A DNA stretch of 64,000 nucleotides. Origin: an uncultured Candidatus Saccharibacteria bacterium (GTDB taxonomy: Bacteria > Patescibacteriota > Dojkabacteria > CAZCSM01). The position numbers and the translations under genes were made by a program. Shown one piece after another: positions 39,015 to 56,249 of the stretch. Where the stretch lies: NCBI GenBank assembly GCA_964501355.1, contig CAZCSM010000002.1, positions 5,884-69,883 on the forward strand, read 5' to 3'. Numbering within the stretch: the stretch's first letter is position 1; each line of letters starts with the position of its first letter. A model generated the notes under the pieces. It made no database searches, was not told the DNA's origin, and saw only the letters and a program-made list of their open reading frames with translations.

Positions 39015-39079
39015 ATTTAAATTGGTTGGAGATTGTTAAAACATTGATAAAACATAGTTCAAACGTTGTTGAAACGTAG

Positions 39080-39463
39080 TTACAAATTTTTAGATAAATA
39101 TTTAATCAAGTTACTTATCTTCACTGATATGGTAACACAATTCTTTCGAAGTTCTTCTGATTTTGCAGAACCTATAAAGTTTTGATTCTCTGCAATATGC
39201 AACATGCTTCGCACTTCTCCGCAAGATCCTTTGGAAATGTATAAGAATCTTATAAGTTCTCTGTTGCTTTGTCTTTCGTAACCTTCAGCAATGTTATTGC
39301 TTATTGATAAAGTTGCTCTTAATATCTGATCTTTGAAATAGTAATCCCTAAATTTCTTATCTCCAAATATCTGAGATATGTCTATGAATAATTGTATTCC
39401 TAACTGCCAAATTTCTAAATCTTCAAAATTTGTTTTACTATGTTTGATCGATGTTTTATCCAT
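39080..39463 (-). CDS. four-helix-bundle protein (TIGR02436-like), copy 2 of 3, inserted between wzm and wzt
   Basis: LEIWQLGIQLF..ATLSISNNIAEGYERQSNRELIRFLYISKGSCGEVRSMLHIA; flanked by inverted repeats aaaacatagttcaaac / gtttgaaactatgtttt. Confidence 0.75.
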   Translation of the reverse strand: MDKTSIKHSKTNFEDLEIWQLGIQLFIDISQIFGDKKFRDYYFKDQILRATLSISNNIAEGYERQSNRELIRFLYISKGSCGEVRSMLHIAENQNFIGSAKSEELRKNCVTISVKISNLIKYLSKNL

Positions 39464-39543
39464 GTTTGAAACTATGTTTTATCTTTACAATGAAAGCGCT
39501 TCGCTAGATCCTTCGTTGCACTCTGGATGACACTGTTTGTTAT

Positions 39544-40338
39544 TTACAACCGTTCTGCAATCCCTTTGATATTTTTCTTAAAAAAATACAGACTGATGAA
39601 AAATGCCGGTAATATTATTGCCAGCATTATTAGGTTCGTTTTTACAAATTCTATCTTCCCATAAATCAGTGCCGATCTTGCGGAAAGAATGATTCTAGTT
39701 AATGGATTTAATGCAACAACGGTGCTTATTGTTCCGGTCAACATTTCAATCGGGTATATGATTGGTGTAAGGTAGAAAAACACTTGCAATACTAGTTCCC
39801 AAATCGGGGCAATATCTCTGAATCGGACATGTAAAATACTTATAATAAATCCGAAAGTTAATATTAGTATGTATTGGATGAAAATTAAAAAGATGAAATA
39901 TAAAAATGATTGGAATGTGACATCTGTTTTAAATACAATTGCGAATATTCCGAAAATACAGAGGTTTATTCCATAATTTATTATGGCAATTATTGTTGAA
40001 GATACCACCGCAATTTCCTTTGGAAAATTTACCTTCAGAATAATTCCGGCTTTTCCTAGAATTGAATGCATACCGTTAATTGTTCCTTCTGAGAAGAATT
40101 GAAATGTAATTGTTCCGAGTAATAGGTATAAAGGGTAATTTGAGATTGAGTCATTTCCACCGAAGAATTTAGAAAAAACAGTATACAGAATCAGAAACAT
40201 CATAAACGGACGGATAAGCACCCATGCAAATCCGAGAAATGAATTATTATATCTGATTTTGAAGTCTGTCTTTACAAGCTCGACCAGAAGGTCTTTAAGA
40301 TTTTCGTTGGATCGATTCATATGTATGTTCAAAGTCAT
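39544..40338 (-). CDS. wzm: polysaccharide ABC exporter permease (ABC-2 type)
   Basis: LVKTDFKIRYNNSFLGFAWVLIRPFMMFLILYTVFS matches the Wzm/TagG N-terminal signature; 6 TM helices; 264 aa. Confidence 0.75.
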   Translation of the reverse strand: MTLNIHMNRSNENLKDLLVELVKTDFKIRYNNSFLGFAWVLIRPFMMFLILYTVFSKFFGGNDSISNYPLYLLLGTITFQFFSEGTINGMHSILGKAGIILKVNFPKEIAVVSSTIIAIINYGINLCIFGIFAIVFKTDVTFQSFLYFIFLIFIQYILILTFGFIISILHVRFRDIAPIWELVLQVFFYLTPIIYPIEMLTGTISTVVALNPLTRIILSARSALIYGKIEFVKTNLIMLAIILPAFFISLYFFKKNIKGIAERL

Positions 40339-40339
40339 T

Positions 40340-40900
40340 TAAATGGAAGTCCCTTCTCCTTTTAGGAGAAGGTCAGGATGAGGTGATTGTGTTGTATTTA
40401 AACCTCACCCTATCCCTCTCCTATTAGGAGAGGGGACTAGAATACAATTTTGAAATAGCACGTCTTTATGATTGTATAACAAAAGGACTTCGTTTCAAAG
40501 TAGATTCAAAGTAGAGGCAGAATGAGGATGACTGGAACAAGAAATGGATCCCGTGTCGAAGCACGGGATGACGAAGTGAAATGACACCAGCTGTCATCGC
40601 GGGCGAAGACCCGCGATCTCGGAGTACATTGATTACTGACTTTTGTGAAAAACAGTAGTTTTATATTTAATCCGAGATCCCGCATCACACCCCGAGATTC
40701 GGGGCTGTGCGGGATGACATAATATCTTCTCCCCTGAAAAGGGGAGTGGTTGCGAAGCAACCGAGGGGTGTTACCGTACACCTTCCGCCACTAATAATCG
40801 GTTTATTATTCTTCGAGCGCAACGAAGTGGAGTCGAGAAGTTCTCGACTTCGCTCGAACAATAAACCATGTCTGATTCTCCACCAGTAGTGAGCTTGTCG
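40340..40900. repeat. palindrome-dense intergenic region: at least nine distinct short hairpin units of several families
   Basis: ccttctcct-ttt-aggagaagg; ccctctcct-att-aggagaggg; gatcccgtgtcg-aag-cacgggatgacg; tgaca-ccagc-tgtca; cgcggg-cgaaga-cccgcg; atcccgca..ccccga-gat-tcgggg..tgcgggat; ctcccct-gaaa-aggggag; ggttgc-gaa-gcaacc; ttattcttcgagcg..tcgagaa-g-ttctcga..cgctcgaacaataa. Confidence 0.8.
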
Positions 40901-40994
40901 AATTATGCGGAGAAGGACACTGTGCTATGCACTAGTTGCAAACGGTTGTTTATAGTACAATATTTCTATCTGAATTTTGGCTTAAAGATTTTTA

Positions 40995-41924
40995 ATGAAA
41001 AACTTTGATCTTTCGATTGTTATACTTACATATAATGTTCGCAATTTATTAAAGGAGTGTCTTCATTCTGTTTTTAATTCCGTCGATTTCGCGAAGCTTT
41101 CTGCTGAGGTATTCGTGGTTGATAATGGTAATGATGGAACGGATAAAATGATTGGAGAATTTTTCAATCGTTCGGTAAAGTATATCCCAAATTCTTCTGA
41201 ATCCGGATATGCGGCATCGAACAATCTTGCATTAAAACAAACTTCGGGGAAATATGTTCTTCTTCTTAACCCTGATACAAAACTTCAAAATGACACGCTG
41301 AAAGTTATTTACGATTACATGGAAGAAAATCCTGATGTCGGCGTTTCGACTGCAAAGGTCGAGCTTCCAGATGGAAAATTGGATGGTGCTTGTCACAGAT
41401 CTTTTCCCACACCATGGAATGCATTAACGAGATTTTCTCATTTGTCGAAAAAATATCCGACTAGTAAGATTTTCAATCAGTATAATTTGGGATATTTGGA
41501 TATTAATACCATACACGAAGTTGATTGTTGTACTGGAGCTTTTATGTTTATTCGACGAGAATCGATAGAAGGAGGTTCTCGCCATGCTGAAGTCGGCTGG
41601 CTTGATGAAGATTATTGGGCAAATGGAGAGGATATCGATTTTTGTTATAGAATTAAGCAAGCCGGTTGGAAGATTATGTTTGTCCCGACGACAAAGATCA
41701 TTCATTATAAGGGAGCAAGTAGCGGAACGCAGCTTTCAACACAAGAGATTTCAAGTGCGGATAAAATGACGAAAAGAAGATGGATTAACGCATTTCATGA
41801 TACGATGCCGATTTTTTATAAAAAACATTACACGAAGAAATATCCGTTTTTCGTGAGATGGATAGTACTTCTGGGCGTTGAGATAAAAAGACAAATTGCA
41901 CTTAAAAAACTATTAAATAACTAA
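40995..41924 (+). CDS. GT2-family glycosyltransferase
   Basis: DLSIVILTYNVRNLLKECL..VVDNGNDGT..LLNPDT GT-A motifs; 309 aa. Confidence 0.75.
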   Translation: MKNFDLSIVILTYNVRNLLKECLHSVFNSVDFAKLSAEVFVVDNGNDGTDKMIGEFFNRSVKYIPNSSESGYAASNNLALKQTSGKYVLLLNPDTKLQNDTLKVIYDYMEENPDVGVSTAKVELPDGKLDGACHRSFPTPWNALTRFSHLSKKYPTSKIFNQYNLGYLDINTIHEVDCCTGAFMFIRRESIEGGSRHAEVGWLDEDYWANGEDIDFCYRIKQAGWKIMFVPTTKIIHYKGASSGTQLSTQEISSADKMTKRRWINAFHDTMPIFYKKHYTKKYPFFVRWIVLLGVEIKRQIALKKLLNN

Positions 41925-41959
41925 TTATAATTTCAAAGTGATACTAGTTTTTTAAGAAA

Positions 41960-42145
41960 TTCCAAATTCTAAATTACAAATATCAAATAAATTACAATAT
42001 ATAAAATCTCAAAATAATTATTTGTAGGTTTTGTGATTTGGCGAATTAATGTTTGAGATTTGTTTGGAAATTAAGATTTTGGATTTGGTGCTTTAAGATA
42101 ATGATTCTTATACATGGATTCCGTGTCGAGCACGGAATGACGATT
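41960..42145. repeat. AT-rich modular inverted-repeat pair with ~35-nt spacer (no cargo) followed by one gatcccgtgtcg-type palindromic unit, immediately upstream of GT4 gene
   Basis: aaattccaaattctaaattacaaatatcaaata ... gagatttgtttggaaattaagattttggatttggtgcttt; then ggattccgtgtcgagcacggaatgacg at 42116-42142. Confidence 0.55.
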
Positions 42146-42164
42146 TACTTTACACATAAAATTG

Positions 42165-43394
42165 ATGCGTATTGGTATTGATGTTCGGATGATTTTTGAA
42201 TTTCCAACCGGTATTGGAAATTATCGTAAGAGTTTGATGGAAGCTCTCTTTGAGATTGATCATGAGAATGATTACATTTTAGTTGGGAACAGCAATCAGC
42301 GGTCAGCTTTCAGCGCACAGCTTGAGCAAGTGAATATTTCATTTGGAGAAATAAAATCTAAAGCTAATCATCCTCAGCAACATCTTCTCCTCAGAAGAGA
42401 ATTGCAAAAGCTTAATCTTGATGTCTTTTACACAACACCGTGGGGTGCGACTCTTGGTCTGCCATGCAAATACGTCCTGGAAATTCCTGATCTTATTTAT
42501 CACCATTATCCTCAGTTTGGCTCCTGGAAATCAAAACTTTATGAATTGTTTTTAGAGAAACCTATTGCACGAAATGCCGAGCATGTTGTAACAATTTCTG
42601 ATTTTGTTAAGACAGATATTCATAATTATCTCGGTGTCGATCTGGATGATATTTCGAATATGAAGGGGGATGTTTCTTCTGATTATCGTGTAATTGAAGA
42701 TGAGAAATTTATTAATAATGTTTTAGAGAAATATGGATTGGTGGACCCTAAATTTCGTCGGGGTAATGAAGGGGTGGATCCCGTGTCGGAGCACGGGATG
42801 ACGCCGTTCTTTGTATATCTTGGGAATCAGCGTCCGCATAAAAATTTGGTAAGTTTGTTAAAGGCGTTTGAGATTTTTAAAGACGGGGTTATTTCGTCAC
42901 CTCACCCTAGCCCTCTCCTAAGAGGAGAGGGGACAGATGTGAAGCTTGTCATTATTGGCGGTGTTGACGCAAGCGGGAGGGATGAGGATTCTTTGCGAAT
43001 TCAAAAACAACTTGGGGAAATGAAATATAAAGATGACGTTATGCTTTTGGGAAAGGTGTTTGATAATAATGAAGTTGCTGCAATTTTCAACCGCGCAATT
43101 GCTATGGTTCACCCATCAATGCATGAAGGGTTTGGTATGACTCCTCTTGAAGCAATGAGATGCGGTTGTCCAATTATTGCCTCAAATGTTACTGCTATGC
43201 CCGAGGTTGTAGGTGAAGCGGGTATTTTAATTGATCCTCTCGATCAAAATGCCATCGCAACGGCAATGTATGAACTTTTTACAAACCAGAAATTAAATAA
43301 AGATTTAAAGCAGAAATCTTTAACTCAATCTAAACTGTTTTCTTGGGAAAAAACTGCTAGAATATTGTTAGACGTATTTAGTAAATTGAAATGA
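42165..43394 (+). CDS. GT4-family glycosyltransferase carrying two in-frame palindromic-repeat insertions
   Basis: [23 protein letters not shown]4 motif; inserted peptides [11 protein letters not shown] (42776-42805) and [15 protein letters not shown] (42897-42935) are encoded by hairpins identical to intergenic repeat units. Confidence 0.7.
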
Positions 43395-43395
43395 G

Positions 43396-44652
43396 ATGCA
43401 GGGTTTCCAACTACAAGCCAGAAGTAAGATAGTTATTTCTGTACGGATATTAATTCAGATTGTATTTATTTTATACCTAATCTTCGCGAAGGAAGATTTT
43501 CAGAACCTTGCTGCTTTCTTAGTTGCAATCATCGCTGCGGAAGGCTACAAATTACTCGGTGCTGTAGCAATATCCCAAAATAGCAGATTCCGCGATTTGA
43601 TTGGTTTAGTAACCGGTGTACTAAACGGTATGATATTTATGATTACCTTGTATCTGACAGGCTTTGTTCAAACGGAATTGTGGATGTTCGCCTTACTTTC
43701 TGTCGCATTGACAGCTTTAGAATATGGTATTTATGGTGCCGTTGCAGAAAGTTTGGTTATGATGTCCCTTTATGTTGTAATTGGAGGAATAGAGAGTATG
43801 GACTATTCCATTTTGTTAATTCGTGCTTTTGTAACAATTCTTGTTTCTGCAATTTACGGTTATATTTCAAATCGTGAATTAGTCTTCGAGAAAAGATTTC
43901 AAGAACTGGAAAAGATGAGCAAACTTACAAAAGATCAGAAATCCAGGTTTATTGGTCTCATCTCACACAGTTTGCGGACTCCAATTACGACAATTCGCGG
44001 ATATGTTGATTTACTTGTTAATGAAAGAGCCGGAAAGCTTAAAAAGGAGCAAATGGAATTGGTGGAGAAATTAAAGGAAGAAACTAGCGAGCTTCAAGAT
44101 CTAACAGAAGACTTTCTTACTATCAGTACATTAGAGAAAGAACACATTCAGTTAGACTTCTCCGAATTCGACATATGTGGGCTTTGCAAGGAGGTTTATG
44201 AGGAAATGACACCTCGTGCAAAAGAGAAAGGTATTACCTTTAAATATGAAGACAAATCCTCTCAGTGTTCATATGAAGGTGAGAGATCCAAGCTTGAAAA
44301 TGCAATAAAGAATCTTATCGACAACGCAATCAAGTTCACGCCACAGGATGGTACGGTGACGTTATCTTTATATAATGATACGGATTATGTTTATATCGAT
44401 GTTCATGATACTGGAGTTGGAATCCCACAAAAGGAGCAAAAAGATCTTTTTGGAATGTTCTCAAGAGCAACAAACATTTTGAAATATGAGTATAAAGGTG
44501 TAGGATTAGGGCTATACATGTCTCGGCTTATTGTTGAGGCTCATGGAGGAAGAATAGAACTTGAATCAGAAGAGGGTGTTGGTAGTAAGTTTTCAATTAT
44601 TCTTCCAACCGGCAAATTAGGCAAAGTTATCAGGAAAATATCCGGAAAGTAA
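43396..44652 (+). CDS. membrane sensor histidine kinase
   Basis: 5-6 TM helices N-terminal; H-box LISHSLRTPITTIRGY; G-box GVGLGLYMSRLIVEAHGGRIELESEEGVGSKFSIILP. Confidence 0.8.
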   Translation: MQGFQLQARSKIVISVRILIQIVFILYLIFAKEDFQNLAAFLVAIIAAEGYKLLGAVAISQNSRFRDLIGLVTGVLNGMIFMITLYLTGFVQTELWMFALLSVALTALEYGIYGAVAESLVMMSLYVVIGGIESMDYSILLIRAFVTILVSAIYGYISNRELVFEKRFQELEKMSKLTKDQKSRFIGLISHSLRTPITTIRGYVDLLVNERAGKLKKEQMELVEKLKEETSELQDLTEDFLTISTLEKEHIQLDFSEFDICGLCKEVYEEMTPRAKEKGITFKYEDKSSQCSYEGERSKLENAIKNLIDNAIKFTPQDGTVTLSLYNDTDYVYIDVHDTGVGIPQKEQKDLFGMFSRATNILKYEYKGVGLGLYMSRLIVEAHGGRIELESEEGVGSKFSIILPTGKLGKVIRKISGK

Positions 44653-45530: not shown

Positions 45531-45570
45531 ATCAAATTCCAAATTCTAAATAACAATTTCCAAACAAATC
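45531..45570. repeat. left AT-rich modular arm flanking the four-helix-bundle gene (contains caatttccaaacaaat)
   Basis: reverse complement of module atttgtttggaaattg found in right arm at 45965-45980. Confidence 0.55.
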
Positions 45571-45573
45571 ACA

Positions 45574-45936
45574 ATGACCAAAATCTCAAATAACAAACAA
45601 TATGATTTAGAGGAAAGAACTTTAGAATATGGTAAGAGAATTGTTAGATTCTGCAAATCTTTATCAAAAGATAAAATAAATTCTAGACTTTGTGATCAAT
45701 GTTTGCGCTCTGGAACATCTATAGGAGCGAATTATAGAGAAGCAAATGAAACAGAAACAAAAAAGGACTTTTTGTTTAGGATGAGGATATCTCGAAAGGA
45801 AGCAAAAGAGACGATTTATTGGTTACAATTAATAACAGAAGCAAATCTAGAACTAGAAAATAAGATTAAACCTTTGTTAGAAGAAACTTCTGAACTTCTA
45901 AAAATAATTTCGAGTATAATCGAGAAGTGTAAATAG
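45574..45936 (+). CDS. four-helix-bundle protein (TIGR02436-like), copy 3 of 3, between inverted AT-rich arms
   Basis: 120 aa; GTSIGANYREANETETKKDFLFRMRISRKEAKETIYWLQLI parallels paralogs. Confidence 0.7.
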   Translation: MTKISNNKQYDLEERTLEYGKRIVRFCKSLSKDKINSRLCDQCLRSGTSIGANYREANETETKKDFLFRMRISRKEAKETIYWLQLITEANLELENKIKPLLEETSELLKIISSIIEKCK

Positions 45937-46000
45937 TTTAGAATTTTGAATTTGTTATTTGATATTTGTTTGGAAATTGAGATTTTGGATTTGGTGCTTT
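45937..46000. repeat. right AT-rich modular arm (tttagaattttgaatttgttatttgatatttgtttggaaattgagattttggatttggtgcttt)
   Basis: near-identical to 42055-42100 and 21345-21390. Confidence 0.6.
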
Positions 46001-53366: not shown

Positions 53367-54047
53367 ATGGAGATTATGTTGCCGATTATCCTCACTACGA
53401 TCCCTCTTGTAATTATTGCGAGTACTGTAATTGGAGTTGTTACTCTGCTAAAAAGAAAGAAGGAAGGTCCCGTTAACTTGGATTTTAAATTAGTCTTCAG
53501 AGTTTATTATTACATAATAATGTTTGCTTCAGTGGTATCAATCGGAATTGGAGGAATGTTTACACTCAAAAGTCTTTTTACTAATGTCTGGGGGAAAGAA
53601 TTTAGTTATCGGAAAGAGTATGTCTCAGAAGAATATTATACAAAACCAGTTCTTGAGGATGAAGTTGTTCGTGAACCGGAATATGAATATGTAAAAGATG
53701 TCGAGAAAAAGGATTTAATTTCTGGATTGAGCTACTTACTAATTGCGACTCCGATATTACTTTTACACGTGTATGGTTTGTCTCAACTGGAAAAGAGCGA
53801 CGGTGTGAACTGGCAGATTAAGAAAGTATACCTGATTGTTTCTTTGGTTGTGTTCTCGATGGTCGGTGTTATCTCTCTTCCCGTTGGAATTTATCAGACT
53901 TTACAGTTCTTCATTACAGAGCAGGCGGATGATAATTGGACCTCAATCGTTCCAGGTGAGTATCTCGCAACTGCATGTTCATTTGTCCCAATCTGGGTAT
54001 ATTATTTGATGAAGTTTAATAAAGTTGTATTGAAAACCAAGGATTGA
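53367..54047 (+). CDS. hypothetical multi-TM membrane protein
   Basis: 226-aa ORF, 4-5 hydrophobic helices. Confidence 0.5.
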   Translation: MEIMLPIILTTIPLVIIASTVIGVVTLLKRKKEGPVNLDFKLVFRVYYYIIMFASVVSIGIGGMFTLKSLFTNVWGKEFSYRKEYVSEEYYTKPVLEDEVVREPEYEYVKDVEKKDLISGLSYLLIATPILLLHVYGLSQLEKSDGVNWQIKKVYLIVSLVVFSMVGVISLPVGIYQTLQFFITEQADDNWTSIVPGEYLATACSFVPIWVYYLMKFNKVVLKTKD

Positions 54048-54072
54048 TAAATTGTGGGTTTTGGGGTAAAAT
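54044..54072 (+). promoter_or_regulatory. sigma70-like promoter for the glyQS T-box leader (TTGATA-17 nt-TAAAAT)
   Basis: -35 ttgata 54044-54049, -10 taaaat 54067-54072, spacer 17 nt; read directly. Confidence 0.4.
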
Positions 54073-54077
54073 CTTTA

Positions 54078-54270
54078 TATAAGCGATCGGGGAATACTGT
54101 GAAAGCCCGAAATAAATTGGCAAATCGATGAGAATAAATCCTGTGCTGAGCATTGTCGAAGCATTAAAGTGTCCTTGTCGCTCGGGTTTTCTGAGTGGAG
54201 GGGAATAAAGGTGGAACCACCGTGAATTACGGTCCTTGTTTGATTATTTATCAAGCAGGGACCTTTTTTT
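54078..54270 (+). promoter_or_regulatory. T-box riboswitch leader, glycine-specific (minimal glyQS type): specifier candidate GGC-A, antiterminator with UGGAACC bulge, overlapping terminator
   Basis: aaGG-UGGAACC-ACCG-ugaauua-CGGU-CCuu at 54208-54237 reproduces the A1/7-nt bulge/A2 antiterminator; bulge UGGA complements tRNA-Gly UCCA; terminator ggtccttgtttga-ttattta-tcaagcagggacc + T7 at 54231-54270; aauuGGCAaau upstream. Confidence 0.6.
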
Positions 54271-54632: not shown

Positions 54633-56012
54633 ATGAACAAAAGTGCATCGTTAGAGAAAATACAATCTTGGGCAAAAAGAAAAGGATTTGTGTTTCCATG
54701 TTCAGAAATCTATGGAGGGTTAGCAAATTCTTGGGATTATGGTCCATATGGAGCGCTACTTAAGAACAATATTCGAGATTCATGGTGGAGACGATTTGTC
54801 GAACAACGTGAAGATGTAGTTGGACTTGATTCCAGCATTATTCTTAATCCAAAAGTTTGGGAGGCTTCCGGACATGTCGCCAGTTTCAAGGAAGCTTTAA
54901 TTGATTGTAAAAAATGTCGAAATAGAACTGCTGCGGAAAAACTTATAGAATCTGCAACAGGTGAAATAATGGATGGAAAGAGTGTTGAGGAGTTGAATAC
55001 TTTTATTCAAGAAAAAGAGTTGAAGTGTCCAGTGTGCGGATCTTTTGATTGGACTGAGGCAAGAATGTTTAGCAACCTGTTTGAAACTAGCATCGGTATT
55101 GTTAAAGAATCTGAATCAAAAGTGTACCTTCGAGGAGAAACTGCTCAAGGTATTTTCGTTAACTTCAAGCCAGTTGTTGAATCAATGCGGGTTCGAGTTC
55201 CTTTCGGAATTGCACAGGTGGGGAAGGCCTTCAGGAATGAAATTACAAAAGGGCAGTTCACTTTCAGAACTCTTGAATTCGAACAAATGGAAATTGAATA
55301 TTTTATTCATCCTGAATCTGATTGGGAATCTATTTTCGAAAGCTGGATGAATGAACTAACTGATTGGTATGAATCAATTGGTATTAGCAAAGAAAACATG
55401 CGGCAGAGAGAGCATGGTGATGAAGAGCGTTCTTTCTATTCAAAGCGAACCGTTGATCTGGAATATGAATTTGATTTCGGGTGGAAGGAACTATATGGGC
55501 AAGCATACCGAACTGATTATGACCTATCAAAACATACTGAATTTTCCGGAAAAGACTTGTCTTATAGAGATCCTAAAACCGGTGAGAAATATATCCCACA
55601 TGTTGTTGAACCTTCAACAGGACTTTCTCGAGCTATGCTTTGTGTAATGTATGATGCATATACTGAAGAAGATTTGGGGGATGGAAAGATGCGAACTGTG
55701 ATGAAGTTTGCACCAAGTGTTGCGCCGATTAAGGTTGCTATTCTTCCTCTTCAAAAAGACGATAATCTTCGTGCAAAATCAAGAGAAATTTTTGATGAGT
55801 TGAAGAAATCGTTTGTAGTTGAATATGATGATTCAGGGAGCATTGGTAAAAGCTATAGAAGGCAGGATGAAATCGGAACTCCGTTATGCGTTACGGTGGA
55901 TTTTGATTCTTTGGAAGATGGAGCTGTAACGGTGAGAGATAGAGATACAATGGCACAGGAGAGAATTAAGATTGAGGAACTGGAGAGGTATATTGCAGAA
56001 AAGGTAAAATAG
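54633..56012 (+). CDS. glyQS: glycine--tRNA ligase, alpha2 homodimeric type
   Basis: KRKGFVFPCSEIYGGLANSWDYGPYGALLKNNIRDSWW and class II motifs; Cys-rich insertion CKKCRN..CPVCGS; 459 aa. Confidence 0.85.
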   Translation: MNKSASLEKIQSWAKRKGFVFPCSEIYGGLANSWDYGPYGALLKNNIRDSWWRRFVEQREDVVGLDSSIILNPKVWEASGHVASFKEALIDCKKCRNRTAAEKLIESATGEIMDGKSVEELNTFIQEKELKCPVCGSFDWTEARMFSNLFETSIGIVKESESKVYLRGETAQGIFVNFKPVVESMRVRVPFGIAQVGKAFRNEITKGQFTFRTLEFEQMEIEYFIHPESDWESIFESWMNELTDWYESIGISKENMRQREHGDEERSFYSKRTVDLEYEFDFGWKELYGQAYRTDYDLSKHTEFSGKDLSYRDPKTGEKYIPHVVEPSTGLSRAMLCVMYDAYTEEDLGDGKMRTVMKFAPSVAPIKVAILPLQKDDNLRAKSREIFDELKKSFVVEYDDSGSIGKSYRRQDEIGTPLCVTVDFDSLEDGAVTVRDRDTMAQERIKIEELERYIAEKVK

Positions 56013-56018
56013 CTTAAT

Positions 56019-56046
56019 GTAGAGACGTAGCATGCTACGTCTCTAC
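56019..56046. terminator. 28-nt perfect palindrome gtagagacgtagca/tgctacgtctctac after glyQS stop; shares the arm aatgtagagacg with 1375-1406
   Basis: read directly; no T-run, so the terminator role is tentative. Confidence 0.4.
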
Positions 56047-56144
56047 GAGCTGTCTGGTAACAAATATTATAGGTTTGACATACATTTATATCCATGATAT
56101 AAAGGATACAATCTTAAATCGAGTATTTAAGAGGTCAAACCTTT

Positions 56145-56180
56145 GCCGCGAACGATATTCAACGTTCGCGGCTTTATTTT
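56145..56180 (+). terminator. rho-independent terminator
   Basis: gccgcgaacg-atattcaa-cgttcgcggc followed by TTTATTTT. Confidence 0.6.
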
Positions 56181-56249
56181 CTTCCTTTGTGAATGTATTG
56201 AAATTTTTGGTTCAATGCACGGCTTGACTCGTATTTTCGACAGTGTTTA

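Follow-up and report, generated by a model that had tools for sequence, protein, structure and literature searches.

Two short hairpin repeats also present in intergenic DNA lie in frame within a GT4 glycosyltransferase gene of a Patescibacteria genome

Our results support that a GT4 glycosyltransferase gene contains two in-frame, lineage-specific insertions, both of repeats that are found free between genes as well. In the 64-kb stretch analysed as a whole (hereafter, the window), the first-pass annotation had reported two palindromic units within this gene, here termed A and B, together with near-identical free hairpins between genes. Both claims were borne out, as near-identical copies were located at 40546-40573, 42116-42142 and 40403-40437, with 0 matches in shuffled sequences; these free copies lie 0.6-2.5 kb upstream of the in-gene units, 0 being expected by chance. 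Each of the element classes involved, and the intragenic insertion of the CGTC class, is already known; the novelty lies in the host lineage, in a TMECO-like copy that is translated and in one gene family having been colonised repeatedly.

The host gene (42165-43394, plus strand) encodes a glycosyltransferase of GT-B fold and retaining type according to Pfam, AF2 and Foldseek. Its open reading frame starts at a TTG codon at 42162 (410 aa), and the ATG at 42165 yields the 409-aa product on record. Pfam identified Glycos_transf_1 at residues 212-385 (E=1e-30), with Glyco_transf_4 also present, and Foldseek searches with the AF2 model (mean pLDDT 86, pTM 0.85) retrieved the GT-B GT4 enzymes MshA, BshA, PimA and WaaG. 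All invariant residues of the family are retained in the alignment, including H321, E322, G323, F324, G325 and E330, and the gene displays the GT-B fold, the Glycos_transf_1 C-domain and the E-x7-E region of GT4 enzymes. It is located in a locus with the order ABC-2 permease, GT2, GT4, histidine kinase and response regulator. The window and a Logan assembly of run DRR835035 do not differ at any position from 41896 to 43490 (100% identity), and therefore the inserts are not an artefact of one assembler. As for the host, the best named homologs of the glycyl-tRNA synthetase encoded in the window (GlyRS, 54633-56012) all belong to Patescibacteria/CPR, with 57-61% identity.

As defined by alignment with homologs, insertion 1 occupies 42744-42797 on the plus strand (54 nt, 18 aa, residues 195-212, 59% GC) and insertion 2 occupies 42894-42932, also on the plus strand (39 nt, 13 aa, residues 245-257, 62% GC); the gene outside both inserts has 37% GC, and the window 35.7%. 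Both net lengths in the codon alignment, 54 and 39 nt, are multiples of three, the former being about twice that of hairpin unit A. Insertion 1 is placed between the last helix of the N-domain and the first beta-strand of the C-domain (216-220, FFVYL), and insertion 2 in a C-domain loop joining helix 229-245 to strand 261-265. Unit B had originally been assigned to the GT-B N-domain, which is wrong, since residues 245-257 fall in the C-terminal domain by the Pfam boundaries (212-385) and by the structure model. Structure prediction placed both inserts in loops of low confidence, residues 200-210 and 251-257 being the only segments of this otherwise confident model with pLDDT <50; both loops belong to the C-terminal Rossmann domain and are predicted to be disordered. 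Judging from Rossmann-fold topology, the inserts would be situated at the N-terminal ends of the strands, facing away from the nucleotide-sugar cleft and thus from the ligand-binding edge. Five of the six reading frames of unit A are free of stops; for the ORF copy of unit B only one of six is, precisely the frame in use, a pattern expected from survivorship under selection. The codon alignment reveals no target-site duplication and no clear target motif at the junctions. The 26 nt found 5' of unit A in insertion 1 display, on the minus strand, a CTTC tag, an AT start and a CCA tail, and were considered as a second, decayed CGTC unit; this assignment was not adopted because the arms fail to pair in register.

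The hairpin of unit A was confirmed in the gene as GGATCCCGTGTCGGAGCACGGGATGACG at 42776-42803, its end being corrected from 42805. Read on the minus strand with its flanks (42774-42803), it has the structure CGTC-ATCCCGTG-CTCCGA-CACGGGAT-CCAC, with an RNA folding energy of -20.8 kcal/mol (z = -3.3). The intergenic copy at 40544-40573 on the minus strand, CGTC-ATCCCGTG-CTTCGA-CACGGGAT-CCAT, shows 1 mismatch to the ORF unit over 40546-40573 (0 matches in 100 shuffles). A variant on the same strand at 42114-42142, CGTC-ATTCCGTG-CTCGA-CACGGAAT-CCAT, contains GGATTCCGTGTCGAGCACGGAATGACG at 42116-42142, 20 nt upstream of the GT4 start, and its stem change is compensatory (C-G to T-A). All three copies carry the CGTC tag on the minus strand and a CCA tail; their stems (ATCCCGTG/CACGGGAT and ATTCCGTG/CACGGAAT) are perfect, 8 bp long and start with AT, and their loops measure 6, 6 and 5 nt if only Watson-Crick pairs are considered, a ninth G-T/U pair reducing them to 4, 4 and 3 nt. 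Two further hairpins carry a TGTC tag. The window contains 5 perfect REP units and one head-to-head dimer of related units, all within 40.5-42.8 kb.

The tag, stem and tail are those of CGTC-tagged REPs, a superfamily defined by a terminal, unpaired tetranucleotide, CGTC (or TGTC/CCTC), an 8-9 bp stem whose first two bases are A and T, a loop of 4-5 nt with exceptions, and a three-base tail, mostly CCA (Di Nocera et al. 2013, PMC3733652). Such repeats form high-copy families, are often arranged as head-to-head dimers, and include the R. conorii elements RPE-4 and RPE-6 and the Neisseria dRS3/NTS repeats, where CGTC-4 corresponds to RPE-4 and CGTC-1 to RPE-6 plus dRS3; intragenic copies adding short peptides are most abundant in R. 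conorii, no dedicated transposase has been found, and the superfamily was reported from 5 phyla, mostly alpha-proteobacteria (PMC3733652). By sequence, unit A is a CGTC-tagged REP, differing from the published ones in its Patescibacteria/CPR host and in a loop of 5-6 rather than 4-5 nt (4 nt with the ninth G-T pair). Searching the literature for the letters of unit A yielded nothing but matches to unrelated primers, and a search on REPs and Patescibacteria found no paper on the subject. Further, we scanned 185,579 species genomes with the pattern GGATYCCGTG-N3-8-CACGGRATGAC and obtained at least 120 loci in many phyla, about 6 being expected by estimate; the matches listed include five Rickettsia genomes as well as Parcu-, Kerfeld-, Wolfe- and Gracilibacteria. 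Among these listed matches, the Y/R stem positions covary (discordant in 2 of 161), and 24% of the copies fall in open stretches of at least 150 codons, as against 77% of random positions, indicating that the pattern is mostly intergenic.

Unit A also matches the Ssn-related motif (SRM). SsnA is a site-specific GIY-YIG endonuclease acting on single-stranded DNA, whose gene is flanked by such motifs, and genomes with SRMs typically encode Ssn (GIY-YIG, cd10448) flanked by them (Chenal et al. 2025, PMC11893778). The SRM search string, HGTCWYN(0-2)YYVSBRHN(0-5)WNVSBRGN(0-2)RNCYNB, is matched exactly twice in the window, by two of the three unit A copies (42774-42803 and 40544-40573, both on the minus strand), 0.03 matches being expected, and the variant at 42114-42142 is one base short of a match. 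From this match to the published motif, unit A can be proposed as a putative Ssn target. Of the 9 small GIY-YIG genes present in foreign loci that carry this pattern of unit A, 8 lie within 250 nt of the hairpin, including one in a CPR genome (Kerfeldbacteria, L086, 2380-2664), a proximity that independently reproduces the published Ssn/NTS association. Unlike the NTS/Ssn system, however, the window contains no ssnA homolog detectable by tblastn (E<=1e-5) or by six-frame profile search, and one of its unit A copies lies within an ORF, whereas only 2% of N. meningitidis NTS copies are inside genes (PMC11893778). More generally, the 64 kb revealed no nuclease or transposase able to move the units. 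Pfam searches of 150 ORFs beside unit A copies and 150 beside unit B copies yielded no family in more than 3 of the 300, with no transposase among the 25 most frequent families; the only nuclease family listed was GIY-YIG, in 3 of 150, from the unit A set. Ssn is the only known partner of CGTC/SRM repeats, and might conceivably take part in spreading them. We also observed that a Thermodesulfobacteriota sequence, OZ245366 (L036, L049, L058, L121, L122), contains long tandem arrays in which SRM-type hairpins alternate, the periods being ~89 and ~112 nt, and that a small GIY-YIG gene (L049, 5324-5593) lies in an array gap, a BIME-like organisation of Ssn-related motifs.

Unit B has a different layout. 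The core CCCTCTCCTAAGAGGAGAGGGGA is found at 42911-42933 in the gene, the conserved unit extending 5' to CCTCACCCTA, and recurs at 40414-40436 and, inverted, at 40350-72, with 0 matches in shuffles. The complete ORF copy (42900-42934, minus strand), GTC-CCCTCTCC-TCTTA-GGAGAGGG-CTA-GGGTGAGG, is 91% identical to the copy at 40403-40437. The latter (plus strand) and the one at 40349-40383 (minus strand) constitute an inverted doublet at 40349-40437, which folds as one long hairpin (RNA fold -53.3 kcal/mol, z = -6.5). The three-domain layout is that of TMECO, a G/C-rich intrastrand triplex motif whose triplex formation was studied by CD or NMR (Holder et al. 2015, PMC4666352) and whose pattern, CCCTCNCCC-N3-6-GGGNGAGGG-N3-GGGNGAGGG, allows no more than one mismatched pair in the stem. 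As in TMECO, the domains of unit B are C-rich, G-rich and G-rich, the second loop has 3 nt (CTA vs TTA), an inverted pair occurs in intergenic DNA, as described for E. coli (PMC4666352), and the repeats are associated with variable loci. In contrast, the ORF copy, CCCTCTCCt-ctt-aGGAGAGGG-CTA-GGGTGAGGt, shows one substitution per 9-nt domain, the first two being compensatory; it is translated, whereas TMECO in E. coli K-12 is 'always intergenic'; and its host is a CPR bacterium, the motif having been reported from proteobacteria (PMC4666352). Unit B is thus a near-match to the TMECO-type motif and, by this likeness, a putative triplex former; elsewhere, the copies that this pattern of unit B retrieved are exact TMECO of type A. 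The extended pattern was detected in at least 120 metagenome contigs (32-71% GC among the matches listed) and in 94 IMG/VR viral contigs (L253-L335), mostly in intergenic positions. Within IMG/VR viral and proviral contigs, the unit B pattern is common (94 stretches) and the unit A pattern rare (3). The GGGGWSAS motif of TIRYT-associated repeats was considered for unit B and rejected, as only the ORF copy fits.

The insertions were then placed in the context of related proteins, for which 22 proteins, taken from the best 120 of 216 GT4 homologs, were aligned with the window protein. Both segments proved lineage-specific, as the annotation had anticipated: L004 and L005 (62% and 60% BLASTP identity) and P0007 are empty at both sites, and L004, L005 and L007 are orthologous loci in view of their shared gene order. 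Site 1 is empty in all 16 aligned homologs with ~45% identity, and site 2 holds short loops of variable length in them. No empty-site allele was found at >75% identity, the best match in the protein collection having 69% BLASTP identity, and consequently the recency of the insertions is judged from stem perfection only. At the same two loops, L002, L003 and L007 harbor other GC-rich hairpins, as many as three of them being consecutive at site 1, so that 4 of 7 orthologs have hairpins at exactly these positions with differing sequences; examples are TCCCCCTGACAAGGGGGA, CCCTCCTTTTGCAAAGGAGGG and a palindrome with a 28-bp stem from TGTCATCCTGAGC to GGGTGACA. The site-2 hairpin of L003 is a decayed copy of that of L002, as expected if no selection acts on the hairpin. 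In a neighbour-joining tree, the window protein, P0002 and P0003 constitute a clade (bootstrap 0.995), the placement of P0006 not being settled by the tree; together with site occupancy, this requires a minimum of one gain at each site along with turnover, or else multiple independent gains. Hairpin inserts are present in more distant homologs at a third site, in the N-domain, such as the peptide RRDAINRVST of P0009, encoded by GTAGAGACGCGATTAATCGCGTCTCTAC, and P0025 has a tandem structured insert of 40 aa. In addition, the product P0002 (L002, 41-157) bears a 39-aa N-terminal extension (..GRESPSPIRRG..) apparently translated from an upstream hairpin, and is probably an annotation artefact in that part; the window analogue of this hairpin is the unit A copy 20 nt 5' of the GT4 start.

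The comparison with Rickettsia-type elements made in the first-pass annotation applies in part. It is appropriate for unit A, a member of the CGTC-tagged superfamily alongside RPE-4 and RPE-6, but not for unit B, which is TMECO-like and is not an RPE relative. RPE-1 is reportedly ~100-150 bp long and encodes 30-50 aa. The present units share with it the in-frame colonisation of an ORF at predicted surface loops, leaving the gene intact; they differ in measuring 29-35 nt against 100-150 bp, in having no common sequence and in matching no RPE HMM. In this regard, NCBIfam models RPE1-5 gave no match at E<=10 for the insert peptide of the window or the whole GT4 protein, nor did the RPE/WPE domain HMMs or Pfam for the insert peptides. 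The unit A hairpin corresponds to both arms of an RPE-4-like element of R. asembonensis (L072, 4690-4830; arms GTCACCCCGTGG..CCACGGTATCC and GGATCCCGTGG..CCACGGGATGAC), a match covering only 21 specified bases since it was found with the unit A pattern; this element scores 23.6 and 20.2 bits on the RPE4 model, with a cutoff of 23.95. The hairpin singlets, inverted doublets and clusters in mosaic arrays also recall the GTAG REPs/REPINs (Nunvar 2010; Bertels & Rainey 2011), from which, with their RAYT, the present repeats differ in the tag and in the lack of an associated Y1 transposase in the window or among 150 neighbouring ORFs.

We consider it probable that these are selfish or semi-selfish repeats copied into GT4 and surviving where the protein tolerates them. 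Short GC-rich structured repeats would multiply within and between bacterial genomes; unit A (CGTC-REP/SRM) and unit B (TMECO-type) would have been copied into the GT4 coding sequence; and the surviving copies would be those invisible to selection, with a multiple-of-three length, stop-free in the used frame and adjoining the N-termini of the first two beta-strands in the C-terminal Rossmann domain, where they may add disordered loops of 18 and 13 residues with the catalytic residues intact. The identity of the repeats, their absence from orthologs, their loop location and, by sequence criteria, their family membership are direct findings; from here, the inserts would be selectively neutral and the copies would have arisen by a DNA-level copy mechanism. 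It is unlikely, in our opinion, that the hairpins are instead kept in GT4 because they are functional, either with unit A as an Ssn-type target in single-stranded DNA that limits or shapes the recombination of incoming DNA at the surface-polysaccharide locus, by analogy with the NTS repeats around surface-protein genes in Neisseria, or as an mRNA hairpin that slows translation at the N-/C-domain boundary. Different hairpins at the same two loops in 4 of 7 orthologs, the perfect stems of the window copies, the clustering of hairpins around the ABC-2/GT2/GT4 envelope locus and the modulation of N. meningitidis transformation by SsnA/NTS (PMC11893778) would agree with a function, against which stand the three orthologs without hairpins, the decayed L003 hairpin, the lack of an Ssn gene in the window, the low intragenic share of Neisseria NTS (2%), and the fact that tolerant loops alone give recurrence, site-2 length being variable across the whole family. 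The empty orthologs, the decaying copy and this length variability favour tolerance over function; nevertheless, the recurrent use of two loops hints at a functional role, as chance plus tolerance may not fully explain four of seven orthologs filled at the same places, and the absence of a mobilising gene in 64 kb and of target-site duplications also counts against tolerated repeats.

Regarding how copies were made, a doubtful though possible route is that they arose without a dedicated enzyme, by template switching where forks stall, by repair primed from a hairpin, or by short-patch gene conversion with the neighbouring intergenic copies as donors. Donor-like copies on the same strand within 2.5 kb, the lack of target-site duplications and the survey of 300 neighbour ORFs, with no family above 3 and GIY-YIG at 3 of 150, are consistent with this route, and nothing speaks directly against it; however, gene conversion needs flanking homology, which is absent between the GT4 loops and the intergenic sites, and the identity of the units across phyla argues for an active spreading mechanism. 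That the segments are ancestral loop sequence, that the gene is a pseudogene or that the region is misassembled is extremely improbable. The variable length of GT4 loops, and nothing beyond it, would suggest ancestry, which is refuted by the empty orthologs and runs counter to the near-identity of the DNA with intergenic repeats, while the intact ORF with every invariant residue and the second, identical assembly refute the other two.

The colonisation of genes by in-frame hairpin repeats is here extended from Rickettsia and a few proteobacteria to CPR/Patescibacteria, and a TMECO-like, putatively triplex-forming motif is found translated. Orthologous GT4 genes with empty, singly and multiply filled loops provide a natural series for asking whether the sites are chosen or merely tolerated. 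In metagenome annotation, such repeats also give rise to spurious N-terminal extensions and to spurious peptide segments that pass for 'lineage-specific' ones, and recognising SRM/TMECO copies helps to clean protein families and structure predictions. CPR bacteria depend on DNA uptake, and a broader idea, to which we assign a low probability, is that their structured repeats (SRM, triplex and the GTAGAGAC palindromes described below) are directed to, or selected at, loops of envelope-glycosylation genes. If so, the same few GT4 loops would be hit repeatedly by different repeat families as the repeats mark the locus for Ssn-type cutting or recombination, surface-polysaccharide genes would be diversified or protected, and the translated loops would be a by-product of a genome-dynamics system and not random junk.

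An intergenic 'landing pad' between the ABC-2 permease and GT2 genes (40339-40994) contains at least 8 different GC-rich hairpins. The head-to-head dimer mentioned above (40592-40720) pairs the unit TGTC-ATCGCGGG-..-CCCGCGAT-CTCGG with an inverted one, TGTC-ATCCCGCA-..-TGCGGGAT-CTCGG, both of them TGTC-tagged REPs, on either side of an AT-rich centre; its layout resembles RPE-4, and its fold has -58.3 kcal/mol (z = -7.5). Rfam gave no match in the whole window at the gathering threshold, and scanning 40300-43000 by E-value produced nothing beyond microRNA-like noise on the long hairpins. After the glyS stop, the window has the hairpin GTAGAGACGTAGCATGCTACGTCTCTAC, the 89% GlyRS relative has AGGGACAGGTTTGAAACCTGTCTCT and the 84% relative has none, indicating rapid hairpin turnover in the lineage. 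In a third repeat family, at 1376-1407 and 56019-56046, the base is conserved (GTAGAGAC..GTCTCTAC) and the apex varies but is a perfect palindrome (GCAAAATTTTGC, GTAGCATGCTAC); the family also occurs in L248 (~2685-2710) and L350 (~1600-1630), another apex occupies the same place after glyS in the 89% relative, and a copy is translated in frame in homolog P0009 (RRDAINRVST).

Other elements were identified in the window. Two PF05635 genes (23S rRNA IVS/four-helix-bundle; 45574-45936, plus strand, and 39080-39463, minus strand) are bracketed by inverted repeats, the regions concerned being 45536-46000 and 39050-39532. Between GT2 and GT4, at 41950-41975 and 42050-42098, the flanks of the first are found again with no gene inside, as in a solo or empty cassette, and PF05635 genes occupy other positions in the orthologous loci (L005, 4136-4498; L007, 6024-6386), which suggests that gene and flanks constitute a mobile cassette. 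Downstream of glyS, a conserved non-coding element (56060-56183) is kept in the 89% and 84% GlyRS relatives, the former with a 66-nt insertion in the apical part; it comprises a promoter-like ttgaca..tataaa, a long stem aggtttgac/gtcaaacct and a terminator-like gccgcgaacg..cgttcgcggc, and its only Rfam match is non-significant (trpB motif, E=0.8). Finally, a divergent T-box leader precedes glyS at 54047-54240 (26.7 bits, E=0.002), with a score far under the Rfam gathering score of 93, so that a default scan misses it; the spacer between leader and start is ~390 nt in the window and shorter in the relatives.
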